Below, piece by piece: positions 22,980-23,907 of a stretch of DNA of 31,884 bases. Made by a program: the position numbers and the translations under genes. Each line of letters starts with the position of its first letter. Position 1 is the first letter of the stretch. This DNA comes from a virus (taxonomy: Duplodnaviria > Heunggongvirae > Uroviricota > Caudoviricetes), in the IMG/VR virus record IMGVR_UViG_2541047931_000002, positions 1 to 31,884 of that record; one strand, given 5' to 3'. The notes beneath the pieces were generated by a model. It was not told the DNA's origin. It did no database searches and was given only the letters and a program-made list of their open reading frames with translations.

Positions 22980-23005
22980 ATAAAAAACCCGCTCGGCGGC
23001 GGGTT
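22980..23005 (-). terminator. tR'-like intrinsic terminator downstream of PR'
   Basis: Minus-strand AACCCGC-CGCCGA-GCGGGUU followed by UUUUUUAUU, about 60 nt downstream of the PR'-like promoter and upstream of the tRNAs. Confidence 0.5.
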
Positions 23006-23052
23006 GTAGAAACTCTTCTAACGTCAGGCATAAAAAGCCCATCGTTATGACG

Positions 23053-23080
23053 AATTTACCACAGATTCCGGAAAAATCAA
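23053..23080 (-). promoter_or_regulatory. PR'-like late promoter directly after Q
   Basis: On minus strand TTGATT (-35), 16-nt spacer, TAAATT (-10), starting 6 nt after the Q stop; same -10 as lambda PR'. Confidence 0.45.
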
Positions 23081-23085
23081 CCTTG

Positions 23086-23907
23086 TTACCTAGTTACCTT
23101 TTTTAACTGCCGCTCAGCCCATGCTTCTTCAATATCAAACCGGGTCACCAGCGCATCATAGAATTTCTTAACTGTTTTTTCCCATGACGCGCGTGTTATC
23201 TGGTTTGTCACCTCGCATATAGCATTAAATGCCTCCGTTGATGGTAGTCTTTCATAGCCACGACCACCACAACGCTGGCAGTCTCTGATAACAGGCATAC
23301 CACGTTTTACCGACTCTTCACGATGAATGGCGACACCACGCCCACGGCAATCCTTACAGGCGGTGGAAACCTCACCCTTTCCGCCACACTCCGGACAGGC
23401 AACTTTTACCACCTCCCTGACTTTTTTCCATTCTTCCCAGTAAGACGGATACACACCTTTCGTACACTTTGCCCATACCGGCGGCTTACCATCCGGATAC
23501 TGGACCTTGTTTGTAAAAACTACGCTTTCAATAAATTTTTCCCCATAGCAACAAGGGCACTGCTTTTTACTCGCTGCGCTGCGGGCATAATCCTCAAAAG
23601 CGTACGAAGCCATAATGCGCATCACTACCGGTTTTATTTCTGCCGGAAGTTTTCTCAACGCCGCCACACGATCGCACCGACTGAGTGCATAATCTGCCAG
23701 TAATTCTGTTGCCCGCGCCCTGTCATTCATACTGATGCCCATTTTCCCCAGGAACGCAGAAAAACCCATCTCAGCCCGATTCTGTGTCATGCCCTGCGCG
23801 GCCATCACATCAGTGATACTCAGCGCATCTTTTGACGTTGAGGCCGATGCATCGGTCAGGCCAGGGGATTTTGGGGAGTAGTATTTCGGTAAATCTTCCA
23901 GTTTCAT
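23086..23907 (-). CDS. Late antiterminator Q-like protein (QuuQ-type) with DnaJ-like zinc-finger repeats
   Basis: 273-aa ORF located between RusA and the PR'/tR' unit; three CxxCxGxG motifs (CPECGGKG, CKDCRGRG, CQRCGGRG); function inferred from position and remembered similarity to the Qin-prophage Q-like protein. Confidence 0.6.
   Translation of the reverse strand: MKLEDLPKYYSPKSPGLTDASASTSKDALSITDVMAAQGMTQNRAEMGFSAFLGKMGISMNDRARATELLADYALSRCDRVAALRKLPAEIKPVVMRIMASYAFEDYARSAASKKQCPCCYGEKFIESVVFTNKVQYPDGKPPVWAKCTKGVYPSYWEEWKKVREVVKVACPECGGKGEVSTACKDCRGRGVAIHREESVKRGMPVIRDCQRCGGRGYERLPSTEAFNAICEVTNQITRASWEKTVKKFYDALVTRFDIEEAWAERQLKKVTR

Follow-up and report, generated by a model that had tools for sequence, protein, structure and literature searches.

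A probable late-gene switch with a long-arm lambda-family Q protein in a lambdoid Escherichia coli prophage

Results

The switch region and its parts

The DNA analysed here, referred to as the window, is a 31,884-nucleotide (nt) stretch, positions 1 to 31,884 of virus record IMGVR_UViG_2541047931_000002, and its minus strand carries a gene for a Q-type late-gene antiterminator followed at once by a predicted late promoter (PR'), a pause element and an intrinsic terminator (tR'). Together, these elements very probably make up the late-gene switch of a lambdoid, HK97-like Escherichia coli prophage, formed by a long-arm Q of the lambda family and a PR'/pause/tR' unit.

23086..23907, minus strand: Q gene, 273 amino acids (aa), ATG start, TAA stop at 23088-23086; lambda Q family late-gene antiterminator, long-arm form
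23728..23907, minus strand: N-terminal segment of Q, residues 1-60, homologous to the torus- or nozzle-forming part of lambda Q
23053..23080, minus strand: predicted late promoter PR', with -35 TTGATT at 23080-23075, a 16-nt spacer and -10 TAAATT at 23058-23053
23059..23074, minus strand: candidate Q-binding element (QBE), the spacer TTTCCGGAATCTGTGG between the -35 and -10 of PR', proposed from conservation and lambda analogy
23038..23046, minus strand: predicted transcription start (23046) and sigma-70-dependent pause element, AACGAT at +1 to +6, then a discriminator-like GGG triplet
22980..23005, minus strand: tR' intrinsic terminator found by a terminator scan, AACCCGC-CGCCGA-GCGGGTT (23005-22986) and then T6, with a 7-bp G+C-rich stem and a 6-nt loop
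22980..23046, minus strand: predicted short late RNA of ~66 nt, counterpart of the lambda 6S RNA, as derived from the assumed +1 and tR'

The window protein belongs to the lambda Q family

Judged from its sequence, the 273-aa product is a Q antiterminator of the lambda family, encoded where a Q gene canonically lies. The first-pass annotation of this DNA, made by a model from the letters alone, had called it a Q-like antiterminator in the Q position, and the Pfam and PHROG matches, the alignment with lambda Q and the gene order all agree with that assignment. PF03589 (Antitermination protein Q), which is the lambda Q family (PMC9388147), matches with 183.7 bits against a curated cut-off of 26.7 (E 6.2e-55), and PHROG 127 (phrog_127, 'anti-termination protein Q-like') matches over the full length (E 3.7e-111). 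The solved lambda Q structures are hit with E 3.5e-40 and are collinear on both sides of an insertion. In the HMMER alignment, residues 1-113 of the window protein correspond to lambda Q 1-113 and residues 182-273 to lambda Q 116-207, with an overall identity of 31%.

Lambda Q has a helical body (residues 61-113 and 153-207) that contains a helix-turn-helix, and a zinc-ribbon arm (residues 114-152), and its residues 1-44 refold together with NusA into a torus, making the RNA exit channel narrower; the roles of residues 1-44 and 45-60 are taken from the same source (PMC9388147). The predicted fold of the window protein agrees with this plan, and by homology it should likewise combine a zinc-ribbon arm with a helical body that contains a helix-turn-helix. 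Since its N-terminal 60 residues align to lambda Q 1-60 without gaps and at ~50% identity, it may well use the same nozzle mechanism. This segment has a low predicted local distance difference test score (pLDDT) in the free model, as would be expected if it is disordered until bound.

An added pair of probable zinc knuckles at the base of the arm

Relative to lambda Q, the window protein carries an insertion of about 68 residues, placed exactly at the junction of body and arm, between lambda Q residues 113 and 116. The insertion is found in all long-form homologues, with a hairpin of variable length. The insertion and the four CxxCxGxG-type knuckles of the protein lie as follows.

23365..23568, minus strand: insertion, residues 114-181, with knuckle 1, a long beta-hairpin and knuckle 2; predicted second zinc ribbon
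23536..23559, minus strand: knuckle 1, CPCCYGEK, residues 117-124; C117 and C120 invariant in 43 homologues
23374..23397, minus strand: knuckle 2, CPECGGKG, residues 171-178; C171, C174 and G176 invariant
23335..23358, minus strand: knuckle 3, CKDCRGRG, residues 184-191; lambda Q C118/C121 by alignment, cysteines invariant
23257..23280, minus strand: knuckle 4, CQRCGGRG, residues 210-217; lambda Q C144/C147 by alignment, invariant

Three DnaJ-type CxxCxGxG repeats, and a zinc pattern larger than that of lambda Q, had been described in the first-pass annotation. All three repeats are present, but a fourth, the degenerate CPCCYGEK, was missed. The pattern is indeed larger, by an added pair, yet no new type of motif is involved: two CxxCxGxG motifs are already present in lambda Q (CRDCHGTG and CGRCKGVG, together forming a single zinc ribbon), and the window protein therefore differs from it by one added knuckle pair. 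P22 Q likewise has two knuckles. Residues C184, C187, C210 and C213 of the window protein correspond to lambda C118, C121, C144 and C147 with identical spacing.

The four-knuckle plan is retained in 43 of 43 homologues that are 55-91% identical to the window protein. Measured from start to start in this set, knuckles 3 and 4 are a fixed 26 residues apart, as in lambda Q, and knuckles 2 and 3 a fixed 13, while the distance between knuckles 1 and 2 varies from 41 to 58 and falls to 19 in phage mEp013. Knuckle 1 reads CDCCxGxG, a perfect CxxCxGxG, in most homologues, whereas the window copy is degenerate; all four knuckles are perfect in many of them, for example in P0015 (CDCCNGSG, CQKCKGKG, CNDCHGRG and CKRCGGRG). 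The plan extends to the more distant long forms ES18 gp73, SfV Q, Fels-1, mEp013, Yersinia YeP1 and Vibrio Pm34.

In an AF2 model (pLDDT 75), strands 125-136 and 159-170 form one long beta-hairpin with knuckles 1 and 2 at its base. Zinc ribbons are built in this way. We propose a tandem double zinc ribbon: based on sequence and model, knuckles 1 and 2 most probably form a second Zn(Cys)4 ribbon next to the lambda-type ribbon of knuckles 3 and 4. The zinc stoichiometry and the pairing of the knuckles are both what we infer from these data. The insertion sits at the hinge of the arm, adjoining the residues equivalent to those of lambda Q that contact the zinc-binding domain of the beta' subunit (110-112, 117 and 122-126; PMC9388147).

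The DnaJ/Hsp40 cysteine-rich domain (PF00684) is likewise built from repeated CxxCxGxG zinc knuckles, four per domain, which bind two zinc ions. A different pairing could thus be imagined, in which the four repeats form a true DnaJ-type nested domain (knuckle 1 with 4 and knuckle 2 with 3), the lambda-type ribbon having been remodelled and perhaps having gained a redox or substrate-binding activity. We regard this as very unlikely, even though several observations point towards it. With three perfect repeats and a degenerate one, the window protein has the same number as DnaJ; PF00684 matches residues 171-218 (E 2e-6), a match that is also precomputed for most homologues; Foldseek pairs the protein with DnaJA2 (7ZHS; probability 0.97, E 0.24); BLASTP aligns the first knuckle of lambda with knuckle 1 and not with knuckle 3; and one homologue carries the source name 'chaperone protein DnaJ'. 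However, the PF00684 match (28.4 bits) stays below the gathering score of 32.7, the bacterial DnaJ model TIGR02349 reaches 27.9 bits against a cut-off of 377 over residues 163-218 only, and the NCBIfam DnaJ models score about 28 bits against cut-offs of several hundred, confined to the same stretch. A Pfam scan of the 273-aa protein matched only PF03589 and PF00684 and found neither a J domain nor the DnaJ C-terminal domains. Since the J domain is absent, PF00684 is sub-threshold and the fold similarity to DnaJ is weak, the window protein is no relative of DnaJ in any functional sense, and the label 'DnaJ-type' holds at the level of the motif only. The tandem ribbon is the arrangement that we favour.

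A compact predicted promoter, pause and terminator unit follows the Q stop codon

Only 5 nt separate the Q stop codon from the -35 hexamer TTGATT. A TTGATT-16-TAAATT promoter just past the Q stop had been predicted in the first-pass annotation, and the sequence bears this out, the -10 being the same as that of lambda PR'. The window reads TTGATT-16-TAAATT-CGTCAT-AACGATGGG and lambda PR' reads TTGACT-17-TAAATT-TGACTC-AACGATGGG, so that AACGATGGG lies 6 nt past the -10 and is identical to lambda in both sequence and distance. A search of the window finds the composite TAAATT-N6-AACGATGGG a single time, against none in 100 shuffles.

In lambda, AACGAT at +1 to +6 is a -10-like element at which sigma-70 rebinds, producing the +16 pause that is required for Q loading, and the GGG after it is discriminator-like (PMC4005639). 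With +1 set at 23046 by analogy with lambda, the corresponding pause would fall at about +16/+17 (23031/23030). In lambda and the Stx phages, the promoter just past Q is PR' and is constitutive (PMC7547250, PMC4825925). At the other end of the unit, the strong terminator and the RNA of about 65 nt that had been claimed are both supported: the stem-loop with its T6 tract is there, and the lambda-based +1 gives a predicted RNA of 65-67 nt ending in the T tract of tR'. At sequence level, a promoter past Q and an intrinsic terminator ahead of the late genes are thus both in place, and promoter activity, pausing and antitermination are predicted from this arrangement. A Q-utilisation site had also been placed between promoter and terminator. 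The pause element does lie there, at +1 to +6, but the Q-binding element is probably located upstream of it, in the spacer between -35 and -10.

Conservation of the unit and a candidate Q-binding element

The unit was compared across 43 loci, one genome per species, from Klebsiella, Enterobacter, Kluyvera, Pantoea, Erwinia, Rahnella and other genera, with Q relatives that are 43-99% identical; relatives on viral contigs, which are 94-100% identical copies, were dropped from the conservation tests and genome contigs were used instead. In 39 of the 43 loci, a -35, a 16-nt spacer, a -10, the pause element and a terminator all lie 3' of the Q stop. The -35 of the related loci is TTTACT or TTGATT and the -10 is TAATTT or TAAATT, followed by 5-7 nt and then by (T)AACGATGGG. 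Over 37 distinct sequences, the mean information in bits per position is 1.83 for the -35, 1.60 for the spacer, 1.10 for the -10, 1.25 for +1 to +9 and 0.45 for +10 to +25.

The spacer is the most conserved stretch outside the hexamers in the related loci, and its consensus TTTCCcGAAtCTGTG is nearly invariant over the 37 sequences although their Q proteins are just 50-60% identical. The lambda QBE is a 13-bp bipartite site touched by both body and arm (PMC9388147). Because the spacer is conserved above the -10, as a protein-binding site would be, and because the lambda QBE is bipartite, 23059-23074 is probably the QBE of this unit, a candidate put forward from sequence conservation and from analogy. 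Three loci (L121, L123 and L124) have Q proteins among the most divergent found (43-47% identity). They keep the pause element, as AACGAT or AATGAT, and share another -35/-10 spacer, AAGTGGCGAT(A/T)TTTG, and this pattern suggests that Q and its DNA site co-diverge.

Terminators are conserved in a different way. A simple search found a hairpin with a T tract in 40 related sequences, comprising 31 different hairpin sequences, and the implied RNAs are 58-168 nt long with a median of 62. The presence and position of the terminator are kept and its sequence is not; the compact unit is therefore typical of this sub-family.

Two further observations concern the DNA just past the Q stop. Most of the loci from outside E. 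coli (L086-L120) have an inverted repeat, for example AAAATAGCTCAC...GTGAGCTATTTAC, about 10-50 nt past the stop, between it and the -35, and the 3' arm of this repeat runs into the -35; the repeat is absent from the window, where the -35 begins 5 nt past the stop. In Rahnella sp. AA (L110), the sole related locus with no recognisable PR'/pause unit, a terminator-like hairpin directly follows the Q stop.

The predicted short late RNA

Short terminated RNAs 3' of phage Q genes are well known and include the lambda 6S RNA and similar RNAs of phages 21, phi80, 82 and P22, as well as StxS (PMC7547250) and IsrK of Gifsy-1 (PMC4825925). No significant sequence or Rfam match was found between the window RNA and lambda 6S, StxS or IsrK. 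The Rfam isrK model (RF01394) gave 18 bits against a gathering score of 50, which leaves the window RNA outside that family; Trp_leader, isrK and rseX were all rejected as its Rfam family, since their matches stay below threshold and owe their scores to the terminator.

The main product of the PR'-tR' unit in a lysogen could conceivably be a small RNA (sRNA) that regulates in trans, as StxS or IsrK, and not a by-product of antitermination. We consider this distinctly unlikely. Short RNAs terminated 3' of Q do act as sRNAs in Stx phages (PMC7547250) and in Gifsy-1 (PMC4825925), the 69-nt RNA is well folded (-20.6 kcal/mol, z -2.3), and the weak full-length isrK match covers exactly this RNA. 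That match, however, is far below its gathering score and consists mostly of the terminator, and the body of the RNA at +10 to +25 is the poorly conserved part of the transcript noted above. An sRNA role would in any case be compatible with the Q mechanism and does not exclude it.

The first ~27 nt of the predicted PR' RNA (23020-23046, minus strand) have a possible 5'-terminal hairpin, in which AACGA of the pause element pairs with a downstream TCGTT or ACGTT. The stem is found in lambda (L003:887-909) and in most related loci (L084-L126), with covariation at G4-C24, which becomes A-U in 5 sequences, and at C3-G25, which becomes U-A in 1. The covariation score of the named 5-bp stem was reached by only 2 of 500 shuffles, and RNAalifold predicted no structure, this hairpin included, in the first 30 nt of the transcript. 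Such a hairpin might stabilise the 5' end of the RNA.

Gene context

The genes on the same strand follow the order DUF968/YdfU, RusA, Q, PR', tR', tRNAs, holin, endolysin, Rz spanin, HNH, and the small and large terminase subunits. The region is a canonical lambdoid late operon, and there is no sign in the window of a different late regulator. The neighbouring features are listed below.

23922-24278, minus strand: RusA resolvase, upstream of Q
22867..22942, minus strand: tRNA with anticodon CAT, first gene past tR' (ARAGORN; Rfam tRNA 72.5 bits)
22692..22766, minus strand: tRNA-Arg with anticodon TCT, second gene past tR' (ARAGORN; Rfam tRNA 68 bits)
22226-22579, minus strand: phage open reading frame (ORF) phrog_2873, function unknown, between the tRNAs and the lysis genes
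21804-21993, minus strand: STnc100 prophage sRNA, a strong Rfam match (RF02076; 132 bits, gathering score 47), in the moron region from the tRNAs to the holin
21443-21778, plus strand: phage ORF phrog_4407, function unknown, between the tRNAs and the lysis genes

Since the two tRNA genes lie directly past tR', they would be expressed only upon Q read-through. The CAT tRNA could be an AUA-reading tRNA-Ile2 instead of a tRNA-Met. Stx2a phage records have a similar tRNA cluster (tRNA-Met, tRNA-Arg, tRNA-Arg) upstream of stx2A. The phrog_2873 and phrog_4407 ORFs, both conserved in phages, stand on opposite strands, as moron cargo typically does. According to a 2026 preprint (10.64898/2026.05.13.724894), PF03589 Q genes lie within 10 kbp of >98% of the genes for the PasD sRNA, which it links to STnc100.

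An upstream ORF of 349 aa (24291-25340, minus strand) was considered as the real Q and excluded. It belongs to DUF968 (YdfU-like; PF06147, E 1.5e-76), ends in an HNH-type domain and has no Q-family match, and was rejected for this reason. In its favour, record LR597641 labels the 349-aa ORF 'Phage antitermination protein Q', and the DnaJ name of one homologue of the 273-aa protein points the same way; nevertheless, the 273-aa protein lacks a J domain and agrees with lambda Q from end to end, in sequence as in fold. The naming in LR597641 appears to be an annotation error that could mislead.

Occurrence

The 1.7 kb around the Q gene are 99.5% identical to Escherichia phage mEp460_ev081, and a 91.6% identical copy of the gene is annotated quuQ in the Stx2a phage Stx2_EH1910. 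At a coverage of at least 80%, the Q-PR'-tR' segment is present in 2477 of 5426 complete E. coli genomes (46%), where it is annotated 'antitermination protein'; protein database clusters of 3739 and 4648 members bear the same name and list both PF03589 and PF00684. There are 249 phage records with a relative; in a sample taken from them at even spacing, about half have the long form (714-828 nt) and half the lambda size (621 nt).

So wide a distribution in bacterial genomes, together with the many defective prophages of E. coli, could be taken to mean that the module is a decayed, non-working remnant in a cryptic prophage. This is extremely unlikely given the state of the locus. The reading frame is unbroken and shares 99.3% identity with the Q of mEp460_ev081, an isolated and viable phage in which it is annotated 'Phage antitermination protein Q'; the conserved residues and the PR' elements are all intact; they are followed downstream by a complete operon for lysis and packaging; and 88% of window positions 7000-31884 match the phage record vB_EcoS-640R1 at 96.8%.

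Discussion

How the switch would work

Based on the lambda system, the four-helix body of Q, with its helix-turn-helix, and the zinc-ribbon arm would bind the QBE in the PR' spacer. Q would then load onto RNA polymerase at the sigma-70-dependent pause induced by AACGAT(GGG) at +1 to +9, and its N-terminal ~45 residues would, together with NusA, change fold to build a nozzle at the RNA exit channel. A polymerase carrying Q in this way would read through tR' into the tRNA, lysis and morphogenesis genes, whereas PR' in the absence of Q would yield only the terminated RNA of ~66 nt.

Several observations weigh against this interpretation. PR' fits the sigma-70 consensus at 8 of 12 positions, and a generic sigma-70 scan does not report the site because of this modest match; lambda PR' itself has 9 of 12 consensus positions, and given this similar weakness and the strength of the comparative evidence, the miss was not counted against the promoter. 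Little of the spacer sequence is found in the lambda spacer, so that the QBE is proposed from conservation and analogy, and the common ancestry of the related loci inflates that conservation. On the protein side, a prediction of the arm by itself (residues 108-225, 19 trimmed homologues) reached a pLDDT of only 53 and was not taken into a fold search.

What the long-arm form may mean

The gene, its family and the logic of promoter and terminator are already known and annotated, and the module is an ordinary lambda-family Q module. The structural and biochemical studies that we found were all carried out on lambda Q, the short form. Our literature search returned no biochemical or structural study of any long-form Q among the papers covered, and no description of an extra knuckle pair or of a two-zinc or DnaJ-like Q, although a search of this kind does not prove absence. 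The long arm is nevertheless a very common natural form, present in nearly half of the complete E. coli genomes and in some Stx2a phages, and it carries an extra conserved module, probably binding zinc, in the region where the arm hinges and polymerase is contacted.

It is tempting to regard the long-arm form as a mechanistically distinct sub-class of lambda-family Q, comprising about half of the Q genes of this family in phages sequenced so far, but we consider this rather unlikely. If it were true, the second ribbon could alter the reach of Q to its bipartite DNA site or its docking on RNA polymerase or NusA, and lambda Q would be a reduced, atypical member of its own family. The PR' spacer, conserved across genera, offers a ready candidate QBE for a second specificity class in the family, and this candidate would be useful in studies of how late-gene or Stx expression is controlled.

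Comparison with known systems

The RNA predicted here shares with lambda 6S, StxS and IsrK a promoter just past Q and termination within a few hundred nt, the terminator being read through with Q in lambda and the Stx phages and with AntQ in Gifsy-1. The lambda 6S RNA is 194 nt long. The window RNA differs from it in its predicted length of ~66 nt and in the two tRNA genes after tR', and from StxS in that the latter spans 258 nt from PR' to tR' and is processed to 74 nt. The lambda PR'/qut/tR' region and the window unit have in common the -10 TAAATT, AACGATGGG 6 nt further on and an intrinsic terminator ahead of the late genes. However, the spacer is of another sequence and is 16 nt long in the window compared with 17 in lambda, and the different spacer sequence suggests a QBE specificity unlike that of lambda.

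Lambda Q itself (PF03589; PDB 4MO1, 7UBJ-7UBN) agrees with the window protein in the N-terminal nozzle segment, the helical body, the C-terminal helix, the spacing of the zinc ribbon and the position of the gene, and differs in lacking the ~68-residue insertion that adds two knuckles. The closest likeness is to the other long-form Qs (mEp460_ev081, Stx2_EH1910, Klebsiella phage Kpn_R1, mEp237, ES18, SfV, Fels-1 and YeP1). These are annotated as Q and have the same four knuckles, the hairpin that separates knuckles 1 and 2 being variable; they differ from the window protein only in sequence and in hairpin length, the whole proteins being 240-277 aa long, some having CxC in place of CxxC in knuckle 3.

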